IMG/VR virus record: IMGVR_UViG_3300020460_000012
Strand: one strand, 5' to 3'
DNA length: 64,000 nucleotides
DNA from: a virus
Lineage: Duplodnaviria; Caudoviricetes
The notes beneath the pieces are model-generated. The model was not told the DNA's origin and made no database searches. It saw nothing but the letters and a program-made list of their open reading frames with translations. Made by a program: the position numbers and the translations under genes. Of the stretch, positions 4,484 through 48,539 are shown piece after piece. Numbering within the stretch: the stretch's first letter is position 1; each line of letters begins with the position of its first letter.

Positions 4484-4885
4484 TCAACTAGTTAATGGAT
4501 TTTGGTTTTGAAAGTAATTTGCAGTGTAAATAAACTTCGCACCTTCATATCCTGTTTTAGCTGTTATAAGTAAGTCAACATATGATTGATTTACTGTGAC
4601 TGACAGGTCTACAAGATCGTTGCCTAAATTGCTACGAGAAAATGCATTTAGATTAGCATAGTCTACACCTACTGCAACAATACACTTGATTATTTCTTTA
4701 TTAGCATTGTTATAGTCTATTGAGATTGTAAATTCTGCTGTGCTAAATTCACCTGCATGCCAGCGTTCTACTTGTGTATTTGTATAAGCTTGTTTCCATG
4801 GACCATTATGAGAGGTAGCACCATTATTGCGAAGAAGTAATGTTTTTTTAATTCCGTCTTTAAAGTAATTTGCAATGTTAAACAT
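4484..4885 (-). CDS. Small hypothetical, probably structural protein, 133 aa
   Basis: Clean ORF with AAGGA RBS and TAAATA at 4904-4909; beta-rich composition; structural gene context. Confidence 0.55.
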   Translation of the reverse strand: MFNIANYFKDGIKKTLLLRNNGATSHNGPWKQAYTNTQVERWHAGEFSTAEFTISIDYNNANKEIIKCIVAVGVDYANLNAFSRSNLGNDLVDLSVTVNQSYVDLLITAKTGYEGAKFIYTANYFQNQNPLTS

Positions 4886-4909: not shown

Positions 4910-6715
4910 TCAGTTATTTACTATGATTAGTTTTCCAAATTCTGGCAAGTATAGATACTCAATATCACTGGTAGCAAGTGTGCGTATTGCATCATCAAGG
5001 GTTTCTACTAATGGTTCACCGCCTAAGTTAAAACTTGTGTTAAAAATAATTGGAACGTTTGTTTTATCTTTAAATGCTTTAATAATATCGTAATAATGTG
5101 GATTTTGATCTCTACTTACAGTTTGAATGCGACAAGTTCCGTCTACATGGATAATTGCAGGAATTTTTTCTTCTACACCTTCTTGACAATTTACAGCATA
5201 CATCATTGTAGGACTGCTATCCATTCCTCGTAAATCAAACCAATCATGTGCATCTTCTTCTAGTATACTGCCAGCAAAAGGCCTGAAATATTCTCTACGT
5301 TTTACTGCATTTACAAAATCTTTTCCGTCTTTATAAGTAGGGTCAAACATCAAGCTTCTATTACCTAATGCACGTGGTCCATTTTCTGATCGCCCTTGAA
5401 AACAAGCAACAATATTTTTTGTAGTCATAAGTTCGACTACATCTTCATGATTTGCATCTTTAATTTCAGCATCATATTTTTCAACTGTGCTATAAATTTC
5501 TTGTTCTGAATATTCATATTTAGGACCTAAAAATACGTTATCTGCTCTTGCATTAACTTTTGTATCTTGGGATACTTTATAATGCTGAAGTAATGCCGCA
5601 CCCATTGCTGTGCCTGCATCATTAGAAATAGGCTCTACATAAATTTCAATGCCTTCATCTTTTAAAGCTTCTAAGTAATGATAATTAGCTACACAGTTTA
5701 AACCGTATCCTCCGCTTATCACAACTTTTTTACATCTTGATTTTTCAACAGCATGTCTAATTAGCTTTACTACTGCTTCTTGTGTTTCTTGTTGTACAGC
5801 ATATGCTAAGTCTCTTCTATTTTCTAAGTAAGTAACATCTTCCTGATCAAATGCTAATTCTTCATTATCTAACTCTGCATACATTCCTTTGTTAACAACA
5901 GCTCCATTAGGATATCTTGGTACTATTAAACTTCTACTAGTTGTTGGAATTGGTAGTGTTACTTCGTTATCCATAATAGCAGGAATATTATCGTTAGGTT
6001 TACCGTAGGGTGAAAGGCCCATAGTTTTACCTGCTTCAATAGCTTGAAAGCCACAGTATTCAGTAACAGCTTCATATGCTTTAACAATTCCTGCACGATC
6101 ATGAATAAAAGCAGTATAATTTGTATTAGGCTCGCCCCAATTAGTGGCATCCCAATTATCAACTACTGCACCTGGTATAGCTTCTCTTGCACCTATACTT
6201 TTGTGTAGAGTTTTAAATTTATCAGGATACTGACATTTGTAAATACTTTCTGTTTCCCAAATAGTCATACTATTGCCCTCGTGGGTCAATGGAAAAAACG
6301 TACCAGCTCCATCAACAATAACCGCTACAGCTTCGTCAAATCCTGATCTATAAAAAGCCATTGCCGCATGCATTTTGTGATGATACATTGCTACATCAAT
6401 TACTTCTGCTCTGCTTGATGGATCTTGTGTATGCAATAAACCTATTTTTCTAGCTAAACCTGTGTAAACATCTTCACCAGAGTAATCTAATTTACCAGCA
6501 GTTTCTTCTAATCCAGTAGTATGTGCAATTACTAAGTAATCTAATCTGTCAGTATATTCTTTTATTTTAAGAATACTAGCCAATGGTCCGCCATCGTATT
6601 TTAATCTAGTAAGTCTTTCTTCTTCGATACTAAAAACAATTTTGCCATCTTTTAACAAACATACACCTGCGTTATGTCCTCTAGCTATTCCTGCGATCCA
6701 TATTGGTTTAGTCAT
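4910..6715 (-). CDS. Carbamoyltransferase, NodU/CmcH/TobZ family
   Basis: Family motifs present: HNAGVCLLKDG..EEERLTRLK, HHKMHAA, IVDGAG, GKTMGLSPYG, SGGYGLNCVAN, DAGTAMGAA, GRSENGPRALGNRS, KRREYFRPFA, HVDGTCRIQTV, NTSFNLGGEPLVET. Confidence 0.95.
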   Translation of the reverse strand: MTKPIWIAGIARGHNAGVCLLKDGKIVFSIEEERLTRLKYDGGPLASILKIKEYTDRLDYLVIAHTTGLEETAGKLDYSGEDVYTGLARKIGLLHTQDPSSRAEVIDVAMYHHKMHAAMAFYRSGFDEAVAVIVDGAGTFFPLTHEGNSMTIWETESIYKCQYPDKFKTLHKSIGAREAIPGAVVDNWDATNWGEPNTNYTAFIHDRAGIVKAYEAVTEYCGFQAIEAGKTMGLSPYGKPNDNIPAIMDNEVTLPIPTTSRSLIVPRYPNGAVVNKGMYAELDNEELAFDQEDVTYLENRRDLAYAVQQETQEAVVKLIRHAVEKSRCKKVVISGGYGLNCVANYHYLEALKDEGIEIYVEPISNDAGTAMGAALLQHYKVSQDTKVNARADNVFLGPKYEYSEQEIYSTVEKYDAEIKDANHEDVVELMTTKNIVACFQGRSENGPRALGNRSLMFDPTYKDGKDFVNAVKRREYFRPFAGSILEEDAHDWFDLRGMDSSPTMMYAVNCQEGVEEKIPAIIHVDGTCRIQTVSRDQNPHYYDIIKAFKDKTNVPIIFNTSFNLGGEPLVETLDDAIRTLATSDIEYLYLPEFGKLIIVNN

Positions 6716-7684
6716 TTAATATCCTGTTGTTTCCATTAAGTTTATATCATTTTCAAAACAATAATTTCTTACTTGCTCTCTAAAGGTAAACAAATCTATG
6801 TCCGGCACTGATTTATAAATGCTGTTTATGCCTTTGATTATACTACTTTGTTTATCATTAAATTTAATATTTTTCTTCAAAGCTGGCAACAATATTTCCA
6901 ATAGCCACGAAGCCGCGCCGTCTGTAGAAGGATGAGGATCCCACCAATAAGGTTGCTGTTTCTTTGTAGAAGCATTTGTGTTACCAAACTTGTATACACG
7001 ATTAGAGTCGGTTAAGAATTGTTCCTTTCCTAATTTTTGTCCTTCCCAAACATGATTACCAATAGGTTTTAACCAATACTCTTTATTATCATTCCATATC
7101 ATGTTTACATAATGTTCAAATTCAGGATATCTTTCTAGTAGATTACCTTCTGCATCAGTTGATTCTCCGTCGCCATTAAAATTTAAAAAATCTGCACCTA
7201 ATTTTTGAAAATCTCCTATACTAGTCATAAACCATGTACAGCCTACAGATTTTAAAAGTGCTTGAGCAAGTGTTATTGCATTTAGTGAATACATAACGTA
7301 TGTCTGCTCACTAAAAAAATGATCTAACCATACTCTGTTATATATAGATGTATTATGCATGTTAAACATAGAACCTTTAGTTAACCAAGCCGATTCTTTA
7401 TTTTTTTCCGGAAGTCCAGAATCTATCCAAGTCTTACTAGTTTTTTTGAATAAGTGATAATCATTTCTTAAATGGGAAGACCATTGTACAATTATTGTAT
7501 CGTCTTTTGTAAATTTGTTTTTTGAATGGCATTCAGCTAATCTCTGTGCAATACCAAGATTGCCTATACCAGGAAGCCCCCAGTTTTCTGCCTTGTCATA
7601 ATCTGTATCGTAGCATAGTATTGTTGCCCACGTCGGCCAATCAACTAGAGAGAAACTACAACCGAATGTGAAAAGTCTAGCCAA
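6716..7684 (-). CDS. SGNH/GDSL-hydrolase-like protein (possible glycan acyltransferase/esterase)
   Basis: N-terminal FTFGCSFS (block I-like), GLPGIGN (block II-like), IIVQWS, C-terminal WDPHP (block V D-x-HP-like). Translationally coupled to both neighbours. Confidence 0.55.
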   Translation of the reverse strand: MARLFTFGCSFSLVDWPTWATILCYDTDYDKAENWGLPGIGNLGIAQRLAECHSKNKFTKDDTIIVQWSSHLRNDYHLFKKTSKTWIDSGLPEKNKESAWLTKGSMFNMHNTSIYNRVWLDHFFSEQTYVMYSLNAITLAQALLKSVGCTWFMTSIGDFQKLGADFLNFNGDGESTDAEGNLLERYPEFEHYVNMIWNDNKEYWLKPIGNHVWEGQKLGKEQFLTDSNRVYKFGNTNASTKKQQPYWWDPHPSTDGAASWLLEILLPALKKNIKFNDKQSSIIKGINSIYKSVPDIDLFTFREQVRNYCFENDINLMETTGY

Positions 7685-7686
7685 GA

Positions 7687-8622
7687 TTACTCGCCTAAAT
7701 GCTTATCGATTTCTTCTACAATATGGGTTTCTATTTTGTCATTCATTTGCATAATGCCTTCGTTTACTCTGTCTGAAAATTCATCTACAGTCACTCTAAT
7801 CGGGCTGTATACTCTTGAAAGTTCGCCCATGTCCATTATATTAAATGATTCACAATTTGGATAGGAAGTATTAATAGGAAATGTACTTCCAATGACAACC
7901 GTGGACGGAATACCTGTTGCATAAGCAAGATGTTGTCCTACACTATCACAGCCCACAAAGTAATCAGCTTCGGCTATTAATGCTGTCCAAGTTCTCAAAT
8001 CAGTTCCTTTAGGTACAGCAATTGGTCTGTCTACACCATGTTCTTTAAAGTCAATAGCTATTTCTCCCATAAAAATTATACCATAGTTTTTAGAAAGTGC
8101 CTTAACCATGTTGACTAAATTTGTAGGCTCAATACTTCTACCGCTAAAATCTGTTAGCATGCCGCCTTCTTCAATAATACCTTTACCAAAAGGTTGAATA
8201 ACAATTATTTTTTCTCTTTCGGTTTTTTCTCTTACTTCTTTTATTACTGTAGAAGCCCGCATAAGTTCACCTTTACTAAGCTTAATAGTGGGCTTAGGTA
8301 AGTCTCTTACACCTTGATTGTTGATTGCAATATCATATGCTTGTGATAAACTGCATTTTTGATTATAGTATTCCCAAACCCTGTATGGTTCTGGACTAAG
8401 CATATTCATATCTTTGAGCTTATCTTCGAATAAATTTTTGTGCCAATGATCATATGCTTTTGCATGTAGCACAGGATGTCCTTTAAAAAAATCAGAACCT
8501 CCCTCACATACAACTAAAAAGTTGTCATCTGGATTTTCTTCGTGAAACTTTTCAAGTGCAGGAATCGAGCAAACAACTCTTCCTGCTCCACCATTAATAA
8601 AAATTGCAGTGCTTCTTGCCAT
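7687..8622 (-). CDS. Glycosyltransferase family 9-like (heptosyltransferase fold)
   Basis: N-terminal INGGAGRVVCSIPALEKF and C-terminal ALIAEADYFVGCDSVGQHLAYATGIPSTVVIG match the GT9 pattern (lI..ad.fvg.DSg..HlA.A.g.p...l.G). Confidence 0.85.
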   Translation of the reverse strand: MARSTAIFINGGAGRVVCSIPALEKFHEENPDDNFLVVCEGGSDFFKGHPVLHAKAYDHWHKNLFEDKLKDMNMLSPEPYRVWEYYNQKCSLSQAYDIAINNQGVRDLPKPTIKLSKGELMRASTVIKEVREKTEREKIIVIQPFGKGIIEEGGMLTDFSGRSIEPTNLVNMVKALSKNYGIIFMGEIAIDFKEHGVDRPIAVPKGTDLRTWTALIAEADYFVGCDSVGQHLAYATGIPSTVVIGSTFPINTSYPNCESFNIMDMGELSRVYSPIRVTVDEFSDRVNEGIMQMNDKIETHIVEEIDKHLGE

Positions 8623-8712
8623 ATTTATAGATCCTATCGTTAGTAAACATAGTAGTTAATTGCTACTATGAATATTTAGCGACCAAAGATTTATAAATTA
8701 GATAAAGTGACT

Positions 8713-9756
8713 TTATTCTACTGCTGTTGATAATGCTGGATTATAAGTTTTTTCAGCTTCTTCAAATGCATGTGCATCTTCTGTATCTGTTGCTACACTA
8801 TTAGCTTTAGTAACTTTTTTCCAGCTTGTAGGTCTTGTAAACAATGGTGATTCTCTCCATTTTACTTTCCAAGGATCAACTTGTTTAACTTTAGTAAGAG
8901 TAACTTTTGCTCCTGTTCCGCTTCCGTTTGTTACAAAGAAACATTCTGTGTAAACTGCGGCTTCTGGATGATATAATGCTCTCTTATTTTCAACACTAAA
9001 CTCTGTAATTGCTCCTGAACCACTTACTTTAGTAACAGTAAGTTTCACTTCGTCAACTACTTGTGTGTTTTTATATTTAGGATCTTGTACTAATAACACA
9101 TCTCCGACACTATAACCAGAACCACCTGTTGGCACTGTAGCTGTCCATGCAACACCAACTGTTTCAGTAATATCTCTTAGATATGTTCTATATTCTTGTA
9201 TTTTTGTAATTAATCCTGAAGGCAAATCTTCACTGTAAAGTCTATCACTGTTCTGTAACTGGTTGTCTCTAAAAGCAACTTTCTCTTCCCATGTCATAAT
9301 AGGTTTTCTCCAAGGTAACGGAGTTACCCATTGCTCTGCTTGAGGAGAATACTCAATTTCTGTAATTTCGTAAGTATGATTAGGTACGGGATACTTATCT
9401 CTTACATATGGTGTATCTTGTCCTGGTACATCTTCTTCTATGTCAGGAATTGAATGGGGATCAACGCCTTCAAATAAGCCAGCTATAATACATTCAGTAT
9501 TAGAATCTTCAGGTCTTACTTCTACCATATAATGATCACCTTGTGGAAATGGTATCTCGCCATTAAATAATTGCTGACCTACTTCTCCTCCTGATTCACA
9601 ACGTATAAGTTTATTTGTAATACTATCAACCCATACATATACTTTATCAGGACCTTTGTAAATTACTCTTGCTTTTTTACCTAGGTCGTTAGTTTGGTGA
9701 TATATATCATCAGGTAAATCGTAAGTAAATTCTTTTGTTATTTCATTTATAGCCAT
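8713..9756 (-). CDS. Tail fibre assembly chaperone-like protein B, with an inserted fibre-type module
   Basis: Carries the motif RDNQLQNSD...DLP....YRTYLRDI typical of phage tail assembly chaperone domains. Its N-terminus (FTYDLP..YKGPDKVYVWVD) is shared with 11328..11999. Confidence 0.6.
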   Translation of the reverse strand: MAINEITKEFTYDLPDDIYHQTNDLGKKARVIYKGPDKVYVWVDSITNKLIRCESGGEVGQQLFNGEIPFPQGDHYMVEVRPEDSNTECIIAGLFEGVDPHSIPDIEEDVPGQDTPYVRDKYPVPNHTYEITEIEYSPQAEQWVTPLPWRKPIMTWEEKVAFRDNQLQNSDRLYSEDLPSGLITKIQEYRTYLRDITETVGVAWTATVPTGGSGYSVGDVLLVQDPKYKNTQVVDEVKLTVTKVSGSGAITEFSVENKRALYHPEAAVYTECFFVTNGSGTGAKVTLTKVKQVDPWKVKWRESPLFTRPTSWKKVTKANSVATDTEDAHAFEEAEKTYNPALSTAVE

Positions 9757-9765
9757 AATTATTCC

Positions 9766-10566
9766 CTACCAGTATACCACATAAATCATTCCGCCGCCAC
9801 CAACGCCGCCACATCTACATGTACCGTCATTAGTCCAGCCTGTCATTCCTCCACCGCCTGGGTGCATGCCCATCATCATACATGCTTGTCCACAACAACT
9901 AGAGTATGATCCACAAATGCCACCATGGCAACTGTTACAGCATGTTGAAGTACCTTGTGGTCTAGGTCCTGGTGTACCGTATGCACTACCTACATGTTGC
10001 CAACCTGCTTCGATACAAAATTGGCTACTACGATATGCACCTGTTACACTAGTTTGACATTCTAATGTGGTTATTCCTGAACCACTTATATAATTGTTTG
10101 AACAACATGCACACATAGAACAACAAGAATAACAGTTTGTAGCTAAATGACACCTTGTATATCTAGCAGAGCATAATCCGCCTTCTACGCACATACACCA
10201 AGTTCCGTCACCATTACAAACATATGACGAACATCCGTGGAATCCTGCACAACAACTCATATTAGCACCAGATGTACCAGCTGAACACATTCTAATTTGA
10301 TCGCCTGCAGAAACATCAGTTTCGACCATCATATAGCCGCCACCGCCGCCACCGCCGCCTTGTGTACAACAACAGCTATAGCCACCGCCTGCACCGCCGC
10401 TCCATACTTCAAATACTGCCTTTGTTACACCTGCTGGCACTGTCCAAAGATAACAACATCCTCCGTTGTGTGGTAACCACTTATTTGTATTTTGTATATA
10501 AAATTCTTGTGGTTTGATAACACCGCCTGTTTCGTAACCGTATATTAAATTTGTTAATTGACTCAT
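9766..10566 (-). CDS. Cys/Gly-rich virion (fibre-associated) protein C
   Basis: NGGCCYLWTVPAGVTKAVFEVWSGGAGGGYSCCC...GGGGMIYVVYW is the glycine-rich-domain frame of phage fibre proteins; about 31 Cys in 266 aa (hand count). Confidence 0.7.
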   Translation of the reverse strand: MSQLTNLIYGYETGGVIKPQEFYIQNTNKWLPHNGGCCYLWTVPAGVTKAVFEVWSGGAGGGYSCCCTQGGGGGGGGYMMVETDVSAGDQIRMCSAGTSGANMSCCAGFHGCSSYVCNGDGTWCMCVEGGLCSARYTRCHLATNCYSCCSMCACCSNNYISGSGITTLECQTSVTGAYRSSQFCIEAGWQHVGSAYGTPGPRPQGTSTCCNSCHGGICGSYSSCCGQACMMMGMHPGGGGMTGWTNDGTCRCGGVGGGGMIYVVYW

Positions 10567-10576
10567 GTTCTATTCC

Positions 10577-11326
10577 TTACGATGCTACGTGCCATTCTAC
10601 TATAATTAAACCTCCGGCTCCTGCCGCACCACAACCGCAATAGCTGTTATGACTTGACGCCGTTCCGCCACCGCTGCCTGGCCAATAAGCATATCCTTGT
10701 TGTCCACAACCACAGCAATAACCTGAACATGCGTCTCTTGCTGGACGGAAAAAATCTCCTGTAAATGGTGCTTGTGGTGCCCAGTTCCATGCTGTTCCTG
10801 AACAAAATGCTGTACCTTTAAAAGCACCGGACATTCCGCATATTCCAAATCCGCCACACCATGAGCCGCATTCATATGCTGAACAACCCATATAGCTGTT
10901 TCCAATTGGACCCCAGCAATAATTACATCCTACTTTACCTGCACTTGCACAAATAACATTAGCGGCTTCTGTTACACCATAAGCATAACTAGGATATCCT
11001 GGACATCCAGTGTTTGTATTTGCACAAGTAGTTGAACCGCCTGCACAAAATCTGTACTGCTGTCCTGCTACAGTGTTAATAATTTTTCTTGCATAGCTTC
11101 CTGCTCCGCCTGGAATACCAAAGAAACAGCAACAGTTACCTGCGCCGCCTCCGCCGCCGCCCCACATTTCCACTGCAAACCATGTAACGCCAGTTGGTAC
11201 TGTCCATAAACAACAGCATCCGCCATTTTCCATATTGTCTACACTTGTGTGATAGACTACCATTGAATCAACAGCTACGGTGCCGCCACCGCCTCCATAT
11301 TGTAACATTGTTTTCAGTGCTGACAT
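10577..11326 (-). CDS. Cys/Gly-rich virion (fibre-associated) protein B
   Basis: NGGCCCLWTVPTGVTWFAVEMWGGGGGGAGNCCC...GAGGLIIVEW; about 23 Cys in 249 aa (hand count). Confidence 0.7.
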   Translation of the reverse strand: MSALKTMLQYGGGGGTVAVDSMVVYHTSVDNMENGGCCCLWTVPTGVTWFAVEMWGGGGGGAGNCCCFFGIPGGAGSYARKIINTVAGQQYRFCAGGSTTCANTNTGCPGYPSYAYGVTEAANVICASAGKVGCNYCWGPIGNSYMGCSAYECGSWCGGFGICGMSGAFKGTAFCSGTAWNWAPQAPFTGDFFRPARDACSGYCCGCGQQGYAYWPGSGGGTASSHNSYCGCGAAGAGGLIIVEWHVAS

Positions 11327-11327
11327 A

Positions 11328-11999
11328 TTATTCTGCCTTCGTATCTGGTGCTAACGGAAATTCAACTTTCCAAGCTTCTACTTCGTCTGATTCACCTTTT
11401 TTATAAACTGTTGGTAGATCCCTAAGTGCTTGTCTGTAAGTAACCCATGGTGTTTTTACAGCATCGGGCATATCTGGTGAAATTTTACCGTCGGAAGCTT
11501 CTAGCTGTGAATCTCTTTGTAATATAATGTCATCCCAATCAACTGGTGAAGTTTTGTAACCTGCTGACCATGTTTTTGCATCTAAATCATAAACACATTC
11601 GCTTTCGTCGACGTATGTTTCTCCAATTTCTGGCTTACCATTATATTTTATGGTGTAATCACCGTATGTTTCTGTAACTGTTGTTTGATCATTTGTTACA
11701 ATAGTTGAATCAGCAACTCTAAAAATTGCCATCATTAAAGGATCATCTGCAAGAGTTACTTCAACTCTTGTAGTACCTACTGGTACAGGAACATCTGCTC
11801 CTTCATCTCTTTCTGTTAGTTCTCCTGGACTTCTAATTCTTTTGCCCTTGTTGTCACCGTCTGTATCAACAAATACATAAACCTTGTCTGGTCCATTGTA
11901 TGTAGCAGAAGCTGTTAGTCCATCACTATCACTAGAATCAAACATCTTGTTTGGCAATTTGTAATCAAATGTTTTACTAGCTATTGTATTTTCTGGCAT
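11328..11999 (-). CDS. Tail fibre assembly chaperone-like protein A
   Basis: C-terminal WDDIILQRDSQLEASDGKISPDMP....WVTYRQALRDLP is the classic phage tail assembly chaperone motif. Confidence 0.7.
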   Translation of the reverse strand: MPENTIASKTFDYKLPNKMFDSSDSDGLTASATYNGPDKVYVFVDTDGDNKGKRIRSPGELTERDEGADVPVPVGTTRVEVTLADDPLMMAIFRVADSTIVTNDQTTVTETYGDYTIKYNGKPEIGETYVDESECVYDLDAKTWSAGYKTSPVDWDDIILQRDSQLEASDGKISPDMPDAVKTPWVTYRQALRDLPTVYKKGESDEVEAWKVEFPLAPDTKAE

Positions 12000-12018
12000 T
12001 TTCTTTCCTCACACATTA

Positions 12019-12825
12019 TTAATTATAGTATACATACACTTGGCCACCGCCACCTGGTTGTCCATCACAGTGTGAACCTCCGCAAGCTATTCCGCTTGTT
12101 CCTGGTCCTCCAGGAAATTTATTTCCTGTAAATGGATCACCACTTGTACACATTACATATCGTCCTTGTTGATACCAACAAGAACATAAATCTTCGTTCA
12201 TTTGTCCAGGCTGATTAAATCCTGAATGGGTCCAATAATAATACTGCGTATGACAGTATGTATTTCTTGTACCATGCCCACCAATACCTGGCATAATTAT
12301 TCCTTTGTTAGCATCTGCAACATAACCTTGTGTAGCACTAGATGAACCGCCTTGTATTCTTCCAAAACAGCAAGTATATGCATTGTATGGGCTCTGGAAC
12401 CCTGGCTGTTGTGATCCTTCATCACCTCCACATGCACAAATTATAGTTGCGGCCGCTGTTACATCATAAACATATGATGGACAACCATAACAGCTAGTAT
12501 TTGATTTATTATATGCACAACCAGTTGACGATCCTGCACAAATTCTATATTGACAACCTGCTTGGGTATCCATTTGATACCAAACATAAGAACCACTAGT
12601 TCCTTGATAAGCTTCAAAACTACAACAACATCCATCATTACCTGATGAACCACCGCCCCATAGTTTAAACACAAGACTTGTTATACCTGCAGGCACAGTC
12701 CACAAACAACAGCAACCTCCGTTGGCGGCACTTGTATGCGATGTATTCCATACTCTAAGTCTTTGAGGTATGTTACCTACGCTTTGTGGTCCTATATCGG
12801 CCAGTAGTGTTGTTAAAGCAGTCAT
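12019..12825 (-). CDS. Cys/Gly-rich virion (fibre-associated) protein A
   Basis: NGGCCCLWTVPAGITSLVFKLWGGGSSGNDGCCC...GGGGQVYVYY; about 21 Cys in 268 aa (hand count). Confidence 0.7.
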   Translation of the reverse strand: MTALTTLLADIGPQSVGNIPQRLRVWNTSHTSAANGGCCCLWTVPAGITSLVFKLWGGGSSGNDGCCCSFEAYQGTSGSYVWYQMDTQAGCQYRICAGSSTGCAYNKSNTSCYGCPSYVYDVTAAATIICACGGDEGSQQPGFQSPYNAYTCCFGRIQGGSSSATQGYVADANKGIIMPGIGGHGTRNTYCHTQYYYWTHSGFNQPGQMNEDLCSCWYQQGRYVMCTSGDPFTGNKFPGGPGTSGIACGGSHCDGQPGGGGQVYVYYN

Positions 12826-13523: not shown

Positions 13524-16500
13524 TTATGCGTTAATAAACATATTTAAGGCTACGGGTGATCCACTCACCCCACCTGTATAGTTTACCTGTGCTGTTATAT
13601 TTATCTCTTGATTGGTTGTATGCGATATTGTCTGACCAGTTATATTAACTTGACCAGCAGTAATCGAGTTCACATTTAGTTCACCAGCACCGCCACCAAT
13701 TTGACTTGCTATATAAGTTTTAATAGCTCTCTGTGTTGGAACAATACTGTCACTGTTGGCTGTAAACGTACCATCAGTTGAAAACTCAGTAATTGTGGCA
13801 CTAGTACCACCTAAACTTATTTCACCGAGTTGTAATTCTTGTAATCCACTAACATTAAAGGCATCAGCATTTAGTGTTGCTCTACCTGTAGACTGTTCAA
13901 CGCTGAATAATTCTCCTACTCTAAAGTTACCGTCCTGATCAGTTGAGGTATAAAATACTCTACCACCACCAAAATCTTTAGTCTCGTCTGTTTGATCAGC
14001 TGGTGTACTTGGAGTTCCAGGATAGTTTGTAGTTGTTGTATTACCAGTACCTACGTCTAAGAAATCATGTCCTGTTAATCTAACCTGACTATATCTTCTA
14101 CGTATAGTTATACCTTCATCATGTTCTGGTGCTTCTGTTACAGTAATATCTGGACTTACTTGTAGTAATGCTTCATAATTACCCGCACTACCAGTTACTT
14201 GTGTTACTCCTACAAGTTTATACCATTTTCCTGCTATACCTGCAATCTCTACATTAGCTCCTTGTACTGGAGTTTCAGTTAAGTTTTTAACTTTGACATA
14301 TTGTCCAGGTTGATAGTTATCTGCATAACCATTTGCTGATGCTACTGTAGCTGTAGCAGTTGTATATCCTGTACCTCTGTTACTAAAAGTAGGTTGTCCT
14401 AACACACCGCTACCTGTCCTTACTGTATGAGGTACGTCAACAGTATTATTAGGATCAGTCAGTGTCATTGTTGGTGTACTACTATATCCAGAACCAGGAT
14501 GCCAAATCTTAATTTGTGTTACTTTTCCATCTTCAATTTTTGCTCTAGCTTTAGCAATATCAGCATATGCACTTACGCCGCCGCCGCTAAACACTACTCT
14601 AGGTTCAATTATATATTCTGTAGTTGCATCAAGAGCTGATACAATACCTGCTCCGTATACACTATCCCAACCTGCTGTTCCGTCGCTGTTTTTTAACACT
14701 GTTGCGACTTTTGTGCCTGAATCATATGTATTAATATATGCATATTGACCTGCACCTGTGCCGCTTACAATCCAAATAGCCATACCTGCATACATTGCAT
14801 TTGTTGCGGTATCTGTGTTACTAAGAGTAATTTGTGTTGCTGTGCCTACTTGTGCATTATTAGTAGCGGTTACGTATCCAGCGCCACCTAAATCGCTTGA
14901 TGGGTCTGTAAGTCTAACTTGATAAACAGCACCGTTATAAACATTTTCTGCACTTATAGCCGCATCATTATTGCCTCCGACTATTGTTGTAGTTGTATCA
15001 CCATCTGCATAGCTTACTCCTGCATTTAAATATTCAAAGAATAGTATCTGATTTTTGTCAGTAACTATATTTTCAATTTTAGCTTCTGTTGACTGGTTAG
15101 TAACTTTACCTGTCACTGCTGTTTCTGTGCTATCAATACCTTCTGCTACACATCCAAAGTCACCATATGAGCTGTTACCGTTTGTTGCACGTATCTTGCC
15201 GCCGTTTTCTGATAGATATCCTATGTGTGCATAATAAGAGAACACACTAACAAGTTCTGCTCTACCTAAGTTTGTTACCCAAGCACCAATACCATCACTA
15301 ATAATTTGTGTAAAGTCGTTTGCAACTATTGAGTCATTTCCGCCGTCATGTAGGTCTCCGTCAATCTTAAGACCAATACAACCTGTACCAAATGTTGTTA
15401 CATTTTGTATATATGGGGATCTAGTTAAAATATGTGCATCTGTATCTGCTGGACCATATCCTGGATCTAAGCTAATATATGCACCTGCACTTGGTCGTTT
15501 AGTACCATAGGAGTTTGCACTACCTAAAGTACCAGACAAGCCACTTACTGTACAGTTTCTTAAGCCTGAACCGTTTCTCATAAAGAACATATTTTCTGTA
15601 CTAGAGCCACTTACAGAGTTGCTATACAACAATGCCGCATTTATCATTCTCCAGTTTCCTGTATATTCTAAATCATATTTCATTGCGTCAATATATCTGT
15701 TAACATCTCTTGTACAAGCCGCTATAGTATATGTGTAGCTAGGATATTGCACTGCAATATAAGCATGTACTTCTGCAACTAAAAATGTTCTGTTAGCTTC
15801 TATAGCTTCTATAGCATATCTATAACCTGTATCATATGTAGGTGTATTTGTACCTCTGGTTGTAGGAACTGTGGAATCACCAGTTACTCCATTTACCCTA
15901 TAATCAATATAGTCTTCAAGTTCTTGGAATAATGCTGTAGCCGCAGTACCTGCCGCACTTGAACCTGCGGGTCTTGATGTTACTTGTGTTTCAGCATTTC
16001 CTGCTGATTTTGTAACTGAACCGTTTGTTACAATATCACTTATAATTGCTTTTAATCTTTGTATTGCCGCTATACTTTTTGGCACATCAGTAGCTTGTGT
16101 TTGCTGACCTGCTGGTTGTATTTTTGTTGAACGTAATTCGTCACCTATCAATGCTGTATTTGCAGGGCATAGTATAGGAAGAGTTTCTTGAAATGTTCCG
16201 CTCTTAATATAGAGTGAATTGTTAGGTATCACAGCTGATGCCATATTTGTTGTATTACCAGCTGTCACTGCCGCTGTTAAAATATTAGCTAAACTTGTTG
16301 CAGTTGATAAATCATCTGACTCTTCTGTGTAATTTGTATCTGTTTGCTGTGTAGCTGTTACAGAACCTTGCAAAGTTTGATAATCAGATGCTGGAGCCGC
16401 ATTGCTTAATACTGCATCTGCAACAACTAATACTCTTGCAATCATTGCATTAAATTCTGTTATTTTACCAGTAATAGTTGCATCTGCATGTATAGCTGTA

Positions 16501-18296
16501 GTTAACTCTCTTGTGCGTACATTGCCTCCGTGACTCAAATCATAAACAAGTGCATCAACTAATCTACCAACAAATTGCATCCATGTTGCCTTAGTATATG
16601 TGAACGAACCTGTATATGGACTTGTGTTATTTGCTATTCCGTGATCTACGAATTCAACAGCATCGTGCATTATGTAACTTCTATTAATGTGTAACAGTCT
16701 CTTCGCCGCAGGACGCTGTGCTCCGTCCCATAATTGCTGTGTTGCATATTGTATTGTTTTCCACGGACGATCTAAAGTAAGTCCGTATGCACTCGCTGGA
16801 CTATCTACTCCAGCAGTAGGATGTACATAATAAACATTGTTTAGCCTACCAAAGTAACCCCATTCTGGTGCATTACCAGCGGCATTTACTTTAAGTACTT
16901 GTCCTTCAGCACCAATTGGTAATCTTGTAGGACCTGCACCACTATAGTAAACTAAATCACCTTGTGTAGTTAAGTTGCCTGATTCTGCACCTGCGACTAA
17001 TGCATTCCAGTACACACCGCCTGTGTCATTGTCTGGACGTTTAGCTGTATCAGATGTGTGAGCTAAAATACAAACATAGCTGTTAACACCATATCTAATA
17101 GAATCACCTTTATCATATAGTGTAGCTGTTGCCCATGCATTTTTCCATTTAAATCCTTCGTTAAGGAGTTCCCAGTATGTTCCGTTAGGTGGTCTTTGTC
17201 CTGTATGATCTTGTATACATAGATATGTAAATCCGCCTAGTCGTACTACATCACCTACTCTATATTCTTCTGCAGAACTATCATCTCCCCAATCTTGGGC
17301 ATGTTTGAATCCTGTAGTAAATAAAGACCAGTCTGTTGAATTTGCTGGTGGATGACCTTGACCAACGTTATTTGTTTTAGAAACATATGAATAACCGCCG
17401 TAAGTAACAAAGTCGCCTGGTTGATATGTTGTTGTACCACTCCAACTATCTTCAAATTCTAAACCTTCAACAAACTGTGACCATTTATTTTCGTCGGCTG
17501 CAAAAGTAGATTGGCTTGTGTGATAAGTGATACAAATCCATGTGCCGCCGCCATACTTAACAATGTCATTTATTTTGTATCGTGTATTCGTTGACCAGTC
17601 TGTTTTGTATTCTAATCCTTTGTTTAGATAGTCCCATTTACTTTGATCATTTTCTAAACCTAAACCTACAGAAGCCGCTGACGTGTGTCCTTGATTACAG
17701 ACATATACTTGTCCGCCATAACGTACTATGTCATTTACGACATATCTAGTATTAATGTTCCAATCATTTTTCCAGTAAAATCCTTCAGAAAATATATTCC
17801 ATTTTGCTTGGTCATTTTCTAGTCCTAAAGTAGTTGTACTTGCAGATGTATGAGCAGTTACACAAGTATAAATTGTACCGTTATACTTTACAATATCGTT
17901 TACTTTATATCTTGTATTAATACTCCAATCAGCTTTGTAATCAAAACCTTCAGCAAATAAGTCCCAGCTTCCTTGATTAGCTTCTAATCCTAAAGTAGCA
18001 GTAGCGGCAGAAGTATGCTCTGCATTTGCTATATATAGATATCCTCCATATTTTACTATGTCGTTAATTTTGTAAAGAGTGCTTGTAGACCAGTTACCTT
18101 TCCACTCAGTTCCATCGGAAATTTTATTCCAATTAGTTGCTTGGTTAGTAGAAAATAGTGCTGGAGCAGTATGCCCTTTAATACAAATATATGTATTACC
18201 GCCATTTCTAACAATATCATCTTTGTAGTAGGTCGTGGAAGCTGTCCAATTATTCTTCCATATAAACCTAATTCTACCTAATTTAAATTCAGCCAT
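13524..18296 (-). CDS. Giant tail fibre/spike protein 1 (1590 aa) with Trp-rich carbohydrate-binding-like repeats and a beta-helix
   Basis: About eight W......Y..xDIV.Y.G..Y.C...HT repeats (CBM5/12, ChiC-like), a central beta-helix-like region (FFMRNGSGLRNCTVSGL...NDFTQIISDGIG) and C-terminal YSQVRLTGHDFLDVG. TAAATA at 18321-18326. Confidence 0.8.
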   Translation of the reverse strand: MAEFKLGRIRFIWKNNWTASTTYYKDDIVRNGGNTYICIKGHTAPALFSTNQATNWNKISDGTEWKGNWSTSTLYKINDIVKYGGYLYIANAEHTSAATATLGLEANQGSWDLFAEGFDYKADWSINTRYKVNDIVKYNGTIYTCVTAHTSASTTTLGLENDQAKWNIFSEGFYWKNDWNINTRYVVNDIVRYGGQVYVCNQGHTSAASVGLGLENDQSKWDYLNKGLEYKTDWSTNTRYKINDIVKYGGGTWICITYHTSQSTFAADENKWSQFVEGLEFEDSWSGTTTYQPGDFVTYGGYSYVSKTNNVGQGHPPANSTDWSLFTTGFKHAQDWGDDSSAEEYRVGDVVRLGGFTYLCIQDHTGQRPPNGTYWELLNEGFKWKNAWATATLYDKGDSIRYGVNSYVCILAHTSDTAKRPDNDTGGVYWNALVAGAESGNLTTQGDLVYYSGAGPTRLPIGAEGQVLKVNAAGNAPEWGYFGRLNNVYYVHPTAGVDSPASAYGLTLDRPWKTIQYATQQLWDGAQRPAAKRLLHINRSYIMHDAVEFVDHGIANNTSPYTGSFTYTKATWMQFVGRLVDALVYDLSHGGNVRTRELTTAIHADATITGKITEFNAMIARVLVVADAVLSNAAPASDYQTLQGSVTATQQTDTNYTEESDDLSTATSLANILTAAVTAGNTTNMASAVIPNNSLYIKSGTFQETLPILCPANTALIGDELRSTKIQPAGQQTQATDVPKSIAAIQRLKAIISDIVTNGSVTKSAGNAETQVTSRPAGSSAAGTAATALFQELEDYIDYRVNGVTGDSTVPTTRGTNTPTYDTGYRYAIEAIEANRTFLVAEVHAYIAVQYPSYTYTIAACTRDVNRYIDAMKYDLEYTGNWRMINAALLYSNSVSGSSTENMFFMRNGSGLRNCTVSGLSGTLGSANSYGTKRPSAGAYISLDPGYGPADTDAHILTRSPYIQNVTTFGTGCIGLKIDGDLHDGGNDSIVANDFTQIISDGIGAWVTNLGRAELVSVFSYYAHIGYLSENGGKIRATNGNSSYGDFGCVAEGIDSTETAVTGKVTNQSTEAKIENIVTDKNQILFFEYLNAGVSYADGDTTTTIVGGNNDAAISAENVYNGAVYQVRLTDPSSDLGGAGYVTATNNAQVGTATQITLSNTDTATNAMYAGMAIWIVSGTGAGQYAYINTYDSGTKVATVLKNSDGTAGWDSVYGAGIVSALDATTEYIIEPRVVFSGGGVSAYADIAKARAKIEDGKVTQIKIWHPGSGYSSTPTMTLTDPNNTVDVPHTVRTGSGVLGQPTFSNRGTGYTTATATVASANGYADNYQPGQYVKVKNLTETPVQGANVEIAGIAGKWYKLVGVTQVTGSAGNYEALLQVSPDITVTEAPEHDEGITIRRRYSQVRLTGHDFLDVGTGNTTTTNYPGTPSTPADQTDETKDFGGGRVFYTSTDQDGNFRVGELFSVEQSTGRATLNADAFNVSGLQELQLGEISLGGTSATITEFSTDGTFTANSDSIVPTQRAIKTYIASQIGGGAGELNVNSITAGQVNITGQTISHTTNQEINITAQVNYTGGVSGSPVALNMFINA

Positions 18297-18329
18297 TTAG
18301 CACTCCATAAACCTTATATATATTTATCA

Positions 18330-21300
18330 TTATATGTTTGTCCTATCATTTCCGCTATCAGCACCATGAGTAAAGTATTGCATTGCCGCTATTGATCCTT
18401 TAGTAGGTTTATCATGATGTCCTCTAGCAGTTAAATGTATCATATTACTAGTAGTTGACATAGTGTCTGCTGTAACACTAATTGAACCCGACACAAGTTT
18501 GTTAGTGTTTGCATTACTACTACCACCTGATACTCTTGATTGCAAATATTTTCCTATTGCTCTTTGTGTAGGTACAATAGTATTTGCATTAGCAATAAAT
18601 GTAGGCTCTTTCGAAAATTCGTTAATTATAACTTGTGTTCCACCTACTACAATTCCGCCTAGTGTTAGCTGTGTCAATCCAGTTAAAGTAAAGTAAGAAG
18701 CATTAAGTGTAATAATACCTGTATCTTGTTCAACTTTAAATTGTTCACCAACTCTAAAGTTACCGTCTTGGTCTGTCGAAGTATAAAATACTCTACCAGC
18801 ATTAGCTTCTCTTACTTCGTTTTGTTGTTGTGGATCGTTTGTAGCATTATAGCCTTCTACATATCTATTAGGATAATCTGTGTCTCCTATGTTACCAGAA
18901 CCAACATCTAAGAAATCATGTCCTGTCAATCTAACTTGACTGTACTGTTGACGTATAGTAATAGCAGTATTATGCTCAGGCGATTCTGCTCTACCTAGTG
19001 TAGGACTTATAGTCAGTGTTAGATTATAATTTCCTGAACTTCCTGATTGTGCATCGATGCTAGAAACTTTATAGTCAACATCGTTTATTCCGCTTATTAC
19101 TAAGTTATCGCCTGGTCCGGGAACTAAACTTACTCCTTTTAGTTTTAATGTGCCTCCTATTTGGAAACTATCTGCATGACCAAAACCTGCTATTGTACAA
19201 GAAGCAGTAATGTAAGAAGTACCTCTGTTACCAAATACTGGTTGAGGAAGAACGCCATCGTTTATTCTTGCTACTTGTACAGAATTAATTGTTGCTTGTG
19301 GATCATAAACTGTCACTGTTGGAGCCGAAGCGTAATCACTGCCAGGTTCATATACAAAAAACTCGTTAATTTTATCTGACTTAACTACTGCTCTAGCAAA
19401 CGGTTTCGCTCCCCAACCTGTGACTAGGTTCCAATTAGCATTATTGTCTGCAATTACTACCCAATTATTTAATGCTGTACTGTATCCTGCTCCTGACCAA
19501 CTTGCACTTTCTGTTGCAAGGTAATCAGAACTATCATCACTTGTAATTCTCCATACAACTCCGTCTTGTGACTTTGCTAATTGATTACCTGTACCTATGG
19601 CCATAAATGTTCCGCCACTTGATTTGCCATCTACTATACCTGATTGTCCTTTGTGTCCTTCACTGTAAAAAATTCTTGTAAAGTCAGTAGAGCCCGGTAT
19701 ACTGTATTCATACCAATATATTCCATCAAAACTTATTGCTGTTTTAGTTTCTGTGCTTACATCACCCGGGTCTATAGCAACAAATCTACCATTACCAAAA
19801 ATGACGTCAGTGTAACCAACAGGTAATCTTCCTGTTGCTCCTGCGTCATATTGAGTAGACAAACCTGATGAGAATCTAGTAGTGTTAATTGCAACACCTC
19901 CTTTTGAACCTGTGTTTAAATAAACAAATGTTCCATCTGGACCTCCTACACCTGGACCGTATGCGACCTTAGTATAACTGTATAGTGCCGAATCATTTGA
20001 TGCATTAGTTGGCGTATGGTATTGATAGCTTCCAAAATTATTACCTGAGTACCAAACTCTATAATTACCAAAAGCAAATCCTGTACGCTGATTTGTATCA
20101 CCTGGTATAATTGCGCCATCTTTTAATTCAACCCCTGCCATATTTGCAGTATAAGAAGGTAAACTAGTTGCATGTGATTTTGCCGCTACACCGAATTGAT
20201 ATATTGTCCCTGCACCTCCTGAGCCTCCGTTGTCTTCCGCAAAAATTAATACTTGACTACCCCAAGAATCATATTGCACTGCGACTACATCCTTCCCTGT
20301 AAATCTCACTGCTGGAGTACTCCATGTAATTCCGTCTGCTGAATGTGAAGTATACGTATCTCCAGCACCACCTGCTGTTACAGCTACAAAGCAACTTCCA
20401 GCATCGAACCATATTACCTCTTTCCATATTGTACTACTTGGTGCAGTAATCTGTGTAGCAGTTAATGGATGATCACTAAATGTAACTCTTGGTTCAATAC
20501 TGTATCTTGTATTTGTGCCTAGTAATGTTTCAATAGGCCAACCTGGATTTATATGATCCCATCCTGCTGAACCGTCTGATTCTCTACTTACTTGTGCAAC
20601 TTTAGATACATCGTTATAACTAGAAATATATCCATATTGACCTACACCTACACCAGAATTAATAAAAATTCTCATGCCATTGTATTTTGACGGACTACCG
20701 TCTGTATCTGCGGCCGCTAAAGTAATACTTGTTGCATCACCGCCTTGAGCATTATTCAATTTATATTGATAATTATTTCCGCCTGCCGCACTTGAATCAC
20801 CAGGGTCTAGCAATCTAATTTCAGATACTGCGCCATCTCTAGTTTCTTCGTATGTAGCTGTTGCATTTACACCTTGTCCAGCAAAAGTAACTGTTGAAGC
20901 GTTTGATCCGCTTGCTTTATTTTTATAAGTTCTACCTGCATTTTTATATTCTAATGCTAGTATCATATTTTGATTATCAGTTATAACATTTGCACTTGCT
21001 TCTGAAGCTTGGTTATCCACATTTCCTGTTATTGCTGTTTCAGTTGTATCATATCCTTCTGCTACACTTCCAAATGTTCCATATGAGTTATTACCATTTG
21101 TTGCACGTAGTTTTCCACCTTCATCTGCCAAATAACCTATATGACAATAATATGTGAATACACTTACTAATTCTGATCTACCGTTATTTGTTGCCCAGTA
21201 CCCTATACCATCGCTTATTATTTGTGTAAAATCATTTGCAACAATTGATTTGTAACCTGAATTATGTAATGCTCCATCTATTTTTAATCCTACACATCCT

Positions 21301-47626: not shown

Positions 47627-48478
47627 CTATTTTGAAGTTTTATCTGTGAAAACACTAGTACCTGCTTCTTCATTTCTTTTTACACTAGCTTCCCACTCTC
47701 CTTGGTGCTGTCTAGTATAGCTAGGATTTAGATCATTCATTTCAAGAATATCGTCTCTAATGTTTTGATTCCTTTTTTCTATATTAATAACACGTACAAA
47801 CGAATTTGTAACTGCCGCTGTATAATATGCAAAAGGATTTTGGCTTTTTGATTCATCAAATTGCAATCCAATTTGAGTTAATTGTAAAATTGCTTGACCT
47901 TTCATTTCGTCATTATATGTGTAACCTCTAACATTTCCTCTTGTAGCATATCTATCTACAAGTTTCATCCACATCATAGCTAAATGATCAGTTGCCTTTC
48001 CGTGTGATTTGGAAAAATATCCATTCTCCATGCCTCCAACCCAATGACTTTTTCCTACTAGTTGTAGTTCATCGTTATCGTTAAATTTATAATGAACAAA
48101 AGGTGGAAAATTAAGCTTTTCTTTAGTATCTGCTATTGTTTTTGGATTTTTTTTGCGTCCAGCTTCATCTGGTATGTGATCAAATGTCATTACCCTAAAA
48201 ATAAGCTCTTCTTTGGTTATTTTTTGGTAAGGAACTTCACACTCTGCCTGTTTTACTTTTTCTCCAGCTAATTTTCTGCGTTCGTACTCAGCTTGACTAA
48301 GCTTTTTTGCTTTATTTCTTTTAGCTTCAGCAATAGTCCTTATATTAATCTTTTCAACATCAGGCAAGATAATATCGTAATTTGCATACTCCGGGTCTGT
48401 ATAGCTGTTAAAGGTATTTTTTGATTTGTGGATCTGCGTCAATATATCTTTGTTGTTTAAATAGTTCTTTTTTCGCAT
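47627..48478 (-). CDS. gp55: Late-transcription sigma factor (T4 gp55-like)
   Basis: YLNNKDIL N-terminus; RGYTYNDEM..QAIL...FDESKSQNPFAYYT..VTNSFVRVINIEKRNQ. Start reassigned to the ATG at 48478 (GGAG RBS). Confidence 0.85.
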   Translation of the reverse strand: MRKKNYLNNKDILTQIHKSKNTFNSYTDPEYANYDIILPDVEKINIRTIAEAKRNKAKKLSQAEYERRKLAGEKVKQAECEVPYQKITKEELIFRVMTFDHIPDEAGRKKNPKTIADTKEKLNFPPFVHYKFNDNDELQLVGKSHWVGGMENGYFSKSHGKATDHLAMMWMKLVDRYATRGNVRGYTYNDEMKGQAILQLTQIGLQFDESKSQNPFAYYTAAVTNSFVRVINIEKRNQNIRDDILEMNDLNPSYTRQHQGEWEASVKRNEEAGTSVFTDKTSK

Positions 48479-48503
48479 CATTACTCCAGTTGATTTACTA
48501 TTT

Positions 48504-48539
48504 ATTATAATATACTCTGTTAACTTTGTCAACTAAATA
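48504..48539. promoter_or_regulatory. Perfect sigma70 promoter for gp55 back-to-back with a plus-strand late promoter
   Basis: Minus: TTGACA (48527-48532), 17 nt, TATAAT (48504-48509). Plus: TAAATA (48534-48539). Confidence 0.8.

Follow-up and report, generated by a model that had tools for sequence, protein, structure and literature searches.

The 64,000-nucleotide window analysed here (IMG/VR record IMGVR_UViG_3300020460_000012, one strand of a Caudoviricetes genome, numbered from its first letter) carries a minus-strand cassette of three genes, encoding a glycosyltransferase (GT), a protein with an SGNH fold, and a carbamoyltransferase (CT), within the tail-fibre module of a giant marine myovirus of the T4 superfamily. 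The cassette and the signals at its two ends are as follows:

7687..8622, minus strand: GT gene (gene 1), distant GT9-like GT-B glycosyltransferase of 311 aa, putative heptosyltransferase
6716..7684, minus strand: SGNH gene (gene 2), SGNH-fold protein of 322 aa with a TTG start, putative O-acyl esterase or transferase
4910..6715, minus strand: CT gene (gene 3), predicted NodU/CmcH/TobZ-family O-carbamoyltransferase of 601 aa, ATP and carbamoyl phosphate dependent
8672..8679, minus strand: CTAAATAT, candidate core of a gp55-type late promoter by motif and context, 50 nt 5' of the GT start codon
4903..4910, minus strand: ATAAATAT, putative separate promoter of gene g133 that delimits the cassette on its 3' side; overlaps the CT stop codon, 18 nt before the next gene

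The open reading frames and their junctions give gaps of 2 nt between the GT and SGNH genes (...GAG TAA tc TTG) and 0 nt between the SGNH and CT genes (...TAT TAA ATG), in agreement with the tight coupling proposed by the first-pass annotation, in which a model had read the letters of the window without database searches. The GT and CT genes start with ATG, and the TTG start of the SGNH gene is supported by its homologues, which start at the same residue with M-x-R-L-F-x-F-G-C-S. A 90-nt spacer, the largest of the block, lies 5' of the GT gene. Two long fibre proteins, small fibre proteins, three Gly/Cys-rich tip paralogues, and two chaperone-like genes are located upstream of the cassette; downstream follow a conserved gene of 133 aa, a 290-aa protein weakly similar to a baseplate/fibre-connector family (6e-7), and a large virion protein, of which 1188 aa lie inside the window and which measures 2125 aa when complete. 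The placement between virion genes on both flanks, also part of the first-pass annotation, is thereby corroborated.

The arrangement is widely conserved. A profile of the SGNH protein matches more than 560 viral contigs, the best 80 of which were taken and represent 79 distinct loci, 74 of them non-redundant. At 52 of the 74 loci, the GT, SGNH, and CT genes occur in this order on one strand, and a recognisable fibre-module gene is present within 6 kb in all but two of these cases (50/52). Another seven loci show partial or reordered arrangements. The fibre linkage survives rearrangement, because the tip paralogues precede the cassette on its own strand in 33 of the 52 complete cases, as they do in the window, and follow it in inverted orientation in 6. 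In some relatives, the GT gene directly adjoins the CT gene, as in cyanophages, and the SGNH gene is found 4 kb away. The block of long fibre, small proteins, tip paralogues, chaperone, GT, and CT is syntenic with that of three genera of Kyanoviridae, and the N4-like Vibrio phage SBP1 encodes a GT homologue (27% identity, 244 aa) between tail fibre and tail protein genes. This place in the fibre module is kept in three phage families and two architectures, and the survey supports the cassette as one conserved unit inside this module; the gene-neighbourhood check thus confirms a conserved link to fibre genes. With the Cys-rich tip protein as the query, tblastn against cultured phages returned no match at 1e-5, which is probably due to the low-complexity filter and the database size. 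As a separate observation, SGNH and/or CT genes recur beside genes for tryptophan (Trp) halogenase, several 2-oxoglutarate (2OG)-Fe(II) oxygenases, FkbM methyltransferase, and HAD phosphatase (L076-L078, L061, and L001, the last being S-SSM7 at 105-112 kb), and these recurring neighbours resemble a broader "tailoring guild" in marine phage genomes.

The prediction for gene 3 is unambiguous at the sequence level: its product belongs to the NodU/CmcH/TobZ-type O-carbamoyltransferases. Both Pfam domains score far above their cut-offs, i.e., Carbam_trans_N (PF02543, 1e-29, 104.5 bits, cut-off 24) and Carbam_trans_C (PF16861, 6e-58, 195.5 bits, cut-off 27), which correspond to a Kae1-like N-terminal and a YrdC-like C-terminal domain. 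The protein further matches phrog_1601 (3e-167) and, in the PDB, 7xb6 (3e-59), novobiocin CT, GdmN, and TobZ (1.5e-42). All motifs of the family are in place (GHN13, HHKMH112-116, VDGAG134, NDAG365, and GPRALGNRS446, their equivalence with TobZ judged by eye), and the identity claimed for this gene in the first-pass annotation was hence retained. Its score against the NodU equivalog model NF041651 is 140.9 bits at a cut-off of 1000, so the protein is a member of the family rather than a NodU orthologue. The carbamoyltransferase of S-SSM7 is 61% identical to it. Two further cyanophages carry the enzyme in other settings. S-CAM8 (L086, 26.5-38 kb) encodes a 38%-identical CT without a GT9-like partner, located between four 2OG-Fe(II) oxygenase genes and tail-fibre genes, and in S-RIM44 (L085, 193.9-195.5 kb), a CT beside ThyX is annotated as two ORFs with permuted domain order, the C-terminal domain (62% identical to residues 425-600 of the window CT) coming first and the N-terminal domain second.

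The assignment of gene 1 comes mainly from its predicted structure. In Pfam, the GT matches PF01075 with E=2.4e-4 and 20.9 bits, under the cut-off of 22, and the match is confined to residues 207-253; NCBIfam heptosyltransferase models give 13-17 bits at cut-offs of 170-467. The protein belongs to phrog_8954 (E=4e-146). The AlphaFold2 (AF2) model has a mean confidence (pLDDT) of 80, with a weak C-terminal region at residues 267-291, and its best Foldseek matches are the GT9 structure 3tov (1.6e-11, TM up to 0.68), WaaC (2gt1), WaaF (1psw), and TibC (4rap). GT9 structures outrank other GT-B families in these results, and the modelled protein accordingly has a two-domain GT-B fold nearest to solved GT9 enzymes. 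Under the Pfam match lies the stretch D226-S-V-G-Q-H231, in which D226, S227, Q230, and H231 are invariant and V228 and G229 conserved to at least 90% among 32 homologues; compared by eye, D226...H231 may be the equivalent, with one extra residue, of D261...H266 in WaaC and of the GT9 motif D-[ST]-G-x-x-H. More than 5000 clusters of GT relatives were found, some of which are labelled ADP-heptose:LPS (lipopolysaccharide) heptosyltransferase in their sources. In 185,579 species genomes there were only five matches, all on contigs of metagenome-assembled genomes (MAGs) with inconsistent taxonomy (L093-L097, with the labels Chitinophagales, Methanobacteriota, Actinomycetota, and Flavobacterium). 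Most likely, these contigs are phage DNA that was binned wrongly, and taken as such they make the GT subfamily look viral.

The SGNH gene represents an undescribed family that so far contains viral sequences only. Its product found no match in Pfam, NCBIfam, PHROGs, or the PDB, the latter searched both by sequence and by profile; among 44 homologues, only 2 gave weak matches to DUF6071, and no curated SGNH/GDSL sequence model matched the protein. The family comprises 936 cluster representatives at E<=1e-3, and the nearest Atlas clusters are 100% viral. Two distant homologues, P0081 and P0141, sit on contigs too short for their gene context to be read. In the 44 homologues, G8, S10, N34, G39, G41, D62, R73, D75, and H251 are invariant. 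The AF2 model is of high confidence (pLDDT 90), and every top Foldseek match is an SGNH/GDSL enzyme. TesA aligns best (VIA Z 12.5, rmsd 3.1, 169 of 178 TesA residues), and carbohydrate esterases and PatB are close behind. The likeness to the esterases and O-acetyltransferases of this superfamily (RGAE 1deo, Axe2, PatB, and TesA) is thus one of fold (Z 10.9-12.5) together with an N-terminal G-x-S nucleophile, the glycine of block II, and the C-terminal histidine, with Ser10 in block I, Gly in block II, and His251 in block V assigned by their position in the strands of the model. Gene 2 differs from these enzymes in reading G-C-S in block I, in insertions of about 100 residues, in its restriction to viral sequences so far, and in having no similarity at the level of hidden Markov models (HMMs). 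Tandem copies (GT-SGNH-SGNH-CT) are present in some relatives (L033:6891-7802 and L032:5096-6001, hhalign E=4e-85 and 4e-77). The additional genes of about 300 aa within the cassettes of relatives had been considered as new enzyme types; this was rejected, as they are SGNH paralogues.

A source of activated heptose is encoded by the same genome outside the window. On contigs with identical copies of the cassette genes, a convergent operon is located 7.7 kb from the CT stop codon, right after the 2125-aa virion gene (L098:17254-20873). It comprises genes for a HAD phosphatase (GmhB-like), a cupin, a 2OG-Fe(II) oxygenase, an epimerase (HldD-like), a 202-aa protein, and a PfkB+CTP_transf_like protein (HldE-like), and the operon of the closest viral contig has an identical make-up. 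Of five more distant contigs (31-45% complete), two encode an HldE-like protein at a distance of about 13-15 kb from the cassette, and in S-SSM7, S-CAM3, and P-SSM5, the GT-CT pair is followed by genes for heptose kinase/adenylyltransferase, isomerase, and epimerase. A gene for the SIS-type isomerase GmhA (SIS_2) was found neither in the operon, where a cupin gene sits instead, nor on five related contigs; possible reasons are that the product is a modified heptose, that another enzyme takes over the isomerization, or that the host supplies this step. The nearby operon and the heptose genes following the GT-CT pair in cyanophages point to ADP-heptose as the likely donor of the GT, and O-carbamoyl-heptose would be the likely product. 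A precedent for such a product is the 7-O-carbamoyl HepII of the Pseudomonas LPS inner core, which has been assigned to the putative carbamoyltransferase WapO (PA5005) (PMC8005017).

Four further features of the window bear on the cassette:

4484..4885, minus strand: conserved 133-aa neighbour, no family match, directly 3' of CT in most relatives
8713..9756, minus strand: tail-fibre assembly-chaperone-like gene with an extra C-terminal domain (phrog_9740 1e-26; PF16778 weak)
9766..12825, minus strand: three Gly/Cys-rich small fibre-tip paralogues and a chaperone (PF21722 weak; phrog_4205 ~1e-20)
47627..48532, minus strand: gp55-type late sigma factor (phrog_12791 3e-78)

The 133-aa neighbour was found at 54 of the 79 loci, mostly on the same strand right after CT and in a minority upstream on the opposite strand, and it possibly belongs to the cassette system. 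The chaperone-like gene at 8713..9756 closes the fibre-tip array and is kept before the GT gene at 47-48 of the 79 loci. The array itself is syntenic with the genes preceding GT in S-SSM7, S-CAM3, and P-SSM5, and its paralogues are the best candidates for an acceptor of the sugar. Further upstream, the two long fibre proteins (1590 and 1641 aa, 13524-23255, minus strand) both contain CBM_5_12 carbohydrate/chitin-binding domains according to Pfam, which hints that the fibres may bind polysaccharide.

The TAAATA motif in front of the GT gene belongs to a set that is concentrated between genes. Fully intergenic copies of TAAATA[TC] account for 17 of 47, with about 1.9 expected for the 4% of the window that is non-coding, i.e., a roughly 9-fold enrichment, and 13 copies of [ACT]TAAATA[TC] occur at most 60 nt before same-strand gene starts, mostly at 17-31 nt and ahead of structural genes. 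The gp55-type sigma factor is presumed to read these motifs. The classic T4 motif TATAAATA is not enriched in the window (6 observed, 10 expected); one perfect copy at 8622-8629 on the minus strand (TATAAATATG) shares bases with the GT start codon and probably arose by chance in the AT-rich stretch around the ribosome-binding site. It is too near to the start and therefore cannot serve the GT gene unless the mRNA is leaderless. Among 40 distinct relatives, a TAAATA-type motif is present in the spacer before GT in 19, and about 11 more have the variant GCTAAATTAT. A hairpin followed by a T-run, typical of a terminator, is situated just upstream of this spacer in several relatives; around the cassette of the window, intrinsic terminators show no excess over chance. 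Judged by these signals, the cassette is a separate transcription unit, and its promoter is probably late. Of the own late-type promoter that the first-pass annotation had proposed, the motif stands, and lateness stays a candidate property drawn from motif and context.

The window also encodes portal and baseplate genes besides the sigma factor, and the major capsid protein (29898-31073) is 69% identical to its counterpart in the jumbo Sinorhizobium phage Phosso and 65% identical to those of PA5oct-type phages. An identical GT protein was found on 32 contigs, including Tara Oceans assemblies, the longest of which measures 338,594 bp, and a megablast search of the cassette against 50,697 phage records gave no match. 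The nearest known system is the cassette of "LPS genes" in cyanomyoviruses, which consists of T4-GC 302 and 303 plus heptose genes in P-SSM2/P-SSM5, S-SSM7/S-SSM6a, S-CAM1, S-CAM3, and Sf-FS3. Homologous GT (48-58%) and CT (48-61%) genes are adjacent there at the same point of a syntenic fibre block, with ADP-heptose genes nearby. The window differs in the SGNH gene between GT and CT, which occurs twice in some relatives and in none of the cultured phages (no tblastn match), in a GT that is 70-100 aa shorter, in a heptose operon that is convergent and cut off from the cassette by the 2125-aa virion gene, and in a capsid protein nearest to jumbo phages. In Sullivan et al. 2010 (PMC3037559), the cyanophage homologues of GT and CT carry an LPS-gene annotation, and no report was found in the literature that resolves the role of the GT-CT-heptose set, which has been annotated since 2005-2010. 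New in the present analysis are the SGNH family as a member of the cassette, the locking into the fibre module well beyond cyanophages, and an explicit carbamoyl-heptose model.

Three systems outside the cyanophages provide analogies. The inner core of Pseudomonas LPS (WaaC/WaaF plus WapO) resembles the cassette in bringing together a GT9-type fold and a NodU-family CT with an O-carbamoylated heptose as the (here predicted) product; in the window, however, the sequence kinship of the GT amounts to one motif, the genes are viral and located in a fibre module, and kinases and Kdo/lipid A genes are lacking. The autotransporter heptosyltransferases TibC and AAH O-heptosylate repetitive adhesin proteins in the cytoplasm using ADP-heptose. 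They share the GT9-like fold (4rap E=4e-7, 4rb4) and would be functional analogues of an enzyme acting on fibre proteins, but TibC ranks below the LPS heptosyltransferases, and no sequence similarity to the window GT was detected. Mycobacteriophage GTs encoded beside structural genes glycosylate capsid and tail-tube proteins, i.e., phage enzymes from within a structural module target the phage's own virion there; GT families, sugars, hosts, and targets are different, and neither a carbamoyl nor an SGNH step is involved.

The cassette is best explained as a glycan-tailoring operon that builds an O-carbamoyl (and acyl) heptose, most likely on fibre proteins, and we assign this reading a probability of about 0.42. 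The phage would make activated heptose via its separate HldE-, HldD-, and GmhB-like operon, and the GT would transfer it to the acceptor. The CT would form carbamoyl-AMP from carbamoyl phosphate and ATP and O-carbamoylate a hydroxyl of the sugar to carbamoyl-heptose, and the SGNH protein, as a putative Ser-His enzyme, would add or remove an O-acyl group on the heptose glycan. Transcription would be driven by the operon's own TAAATA-type promoter within the late fibre module, and the acceptors would be the fibre and fibre-tip proteins encoded just upstream, so that the parts used for host recognition carry the decorated heptose. A fibre acceptor is favoured by the position in the module, the late-looking promoter with a separate donor operon, the apparently virus-restricted subfamilies of GT and SGNH, and the precedents of TibC/AAH and the mycobacteriophages. 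Generalized to the claim that marine phages heptosylate their own tail-fibre or tip proteins and then O-carbamoylate and acylate them with phage-made ADP-heptose, the model remains tentative. The first-pass annotation had favoured a carbamoylated/acylated glycan on the virion; the conserved fibre-module unit, the heptose chemistry, and a target other than DNA find support, and the acceptor, the late timing, the donor sugar, the order of steps, and the action of the SGNH enzyme on the glycan are what we infer.

Several results weigh against this explanation. At 15 of the 74 loci, the SGNH homologue occurs without GT, close CT, or fibre gene; some stand-alone homologues lie beside DNA polymerase B and UDP-glucose dehydrogenase, others among genes for Trp halogenase, 2OG oxygenase, FkbM methyltransferase, HAD proteins, and a distant CT. 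The SGNH gene is not essential to the GT-CT pair, because cultured cyanophages have the pair without it. Its product does not keep the block III Asn, as position 74 varies between N, H, Q, C, and E amid the invariant R73 and D75 (R-x-D instead of G-x-N-D), and the acidic residue of block V is placed at His-2 (D/E-x-H) instead of His-3 (D-x-x-H). Gene 2 thus encodes a divergent SGNH/GDSL protein, and the earlier designation "SGNH-like" holds for the fold and finds no support from HMMs. By sequence, the GT falls outside GT9, being below the Pfam cut-off, and a profile of its 32 homologues retrieved no GT9 chain and nothing relevant from the PDB. No counterpart of the N-terminal catalytic Asp of WaaC could be mapped. 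The label "GT9" of the first-pass annotation thus stands as a statement about fold plus one motif, and membership by sequence had to be given up (20.9 versus 22 bits). In three relatives (L031, L033, and L043), a sigma-70-like TTGACA-17-TATCAT replaces TAAATA before GT, and the timing of cassette expression may differ among lineages. In T4-like cyanophages, accessory genes are known to insert preferentially in the fibre regions, and position alone could mislead. Finally, no result computed here decisively separates a fibre acceptor from one in the host envelope.

The strongest competitor, a serious one that we regard as less likely, is a remodelling of the host envelope, in which carbamoyl/acyl-heptose placed on a host glycolipid or surface glycan, e.g., the LPS core, would mask the receptor. 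This would serve superinfection exclusion or keep progeny off debris, and receptor-binding and receptor-masking genes would travel together. GT9 and WapO-type enzymes are classically LPS-core enzymes, their cyanophage homologues carry LPS annotations (PMC3037559), the heptose operon is separate and convergent, and the sigma-70-like promoter of the three relatives is of host type. The TAAATA-type motif in about half of the relatives suggests late timing, however, which is ill-suited to exclusion, and none of the three enzymes shows relatives in cellular LPS loci. The LPS of marine picocyanobacteria is reported to be without heptose, which also speaks against an envelope target. Moreover, the GT homologue of the unrelated podovirus SBP1 lies between tail genes with no CT or heptose genes nearby.

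Quite improbable is a soluble, heptose-containing small molecule as the product, or a set of accessory genes parked in a hyperplastic region without connection to the fibres. O-carbamoylation is common in natural-product tailoring, and the neighbourhood of SGNH/CT with Trp halogenase, 2OG-Fe(II) oxygenases, FkbM methyltransferase, and HAD phosphatase on viral contigs and in S-SSM7 fits such a role. Against this, the cassette stays between fibre genes over two architectures and three phage families, and genes for polyketide synthase (PKS), non-ribosomal peptide synthetase (NRPS), or aminocyclitol scaffolds were not found in the flanks examined.

Hypermodification of DNA is less probable still. 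Under this explanation, the GT would glycosylate and the CT carbamoylate a hydroxylated or hydroxymethylated base, giving 5-carbamoyloxymethylcytosine or glycosylated 5-hydroxymethylcytosine (5hmC) or 5-hydroxycytosine (5hoC). GT-B enzymes glycosylate the DNA of T-even phages, which counts in its favour. A phage NodU-family enzyme that carbamoylates 5hmC is known, paired with a ThyA-family hydroxymethylase (Yang et al. 2021, PMC8670742), and phage DNA-glycosylation clusters carry sugar-activation genes resembling heptose-pathway enzymes (PMC13326640). The window CT shares family and phage origin with the 5hmC enzyme, but its partners are a GT and the heptose pathway instead of a hydroxymethylase, and it reads NGPRALGNRS like 7xb6 where the validated 5hmC enzyme has FGPRALCNTT (compared by eye, with a presumed link to W408, G421, and R423). 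No ThyA-family hydroxymethylase is encoded within 10 kb on either side of the cassette in the same genome, and five related contigs of 113-165 kb (31-45% complete) contain no match to PF00303; for this type of enzyme, the absence of nucleotide-modification genes nearby, noted earlier, was verified. In the MetaGPA data, the CTs flanked by glycosyltransferases are those on unmodified contigs (PMC8670742). The HldD-type epimerase points to heptose, and the cassette resides in the fibre module and not in a nucleotide-metabolism module. Least credible of all is a GT that acts as a non-enzymatic, GT-fold structural or assembly factor of the fibre, with only CT and SGNH being catalytic, since the marginal similarity to GT9, the shorter Vibrio homologue (244 aa), and Foldseek matches to the non-enzymatic GT9-like NDH subunit of plants (9grx_1, 7wff_a) are opposed by the invariant or nearly invariant D226-S-x-G-x-H231 of 32 homologues and by the repeated company of the ADP-heptose pathway.

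Homologues of the cassette genes are very abundant in ocean viromes, as judged from the numbers of GT-relative clusters and SGNH-bearing viral contigs given above, and occur in model cyanophages; S-SSM7, S-CAM3, and P-SSM2 are cultured carriers of the GT-CT genes. With the locking of the GT-CT pair into the fibre module of three phage families, the phage's own predicted supply of ADP-heptose, and the carbamoyl-heptose precedent, what had been a vague annotation becomes a model open to testing. With the host envelope as the target, the cassette would be a receptor-masking system genetically tied to receptor-binding genes. If the fibres are the target, glycan decoration would be a new variable for the host range, particle stability, and stickiness to marine polymers of marine phages. 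Should heptosylation of the virion prove true, this would be the first heptosylated virion and the first to bear a carbamoyl-glycan, the SGNH family would represent a new O-acyl tailoring enzyme of glycans, and the accompanying 2OG oxygenases and Trp halogenases may share a toolkit for the tailoring of virion proteins. The "LPS genes", a puzzle of cyanophage genomics ever since P-SSM2, would also find an explanation.

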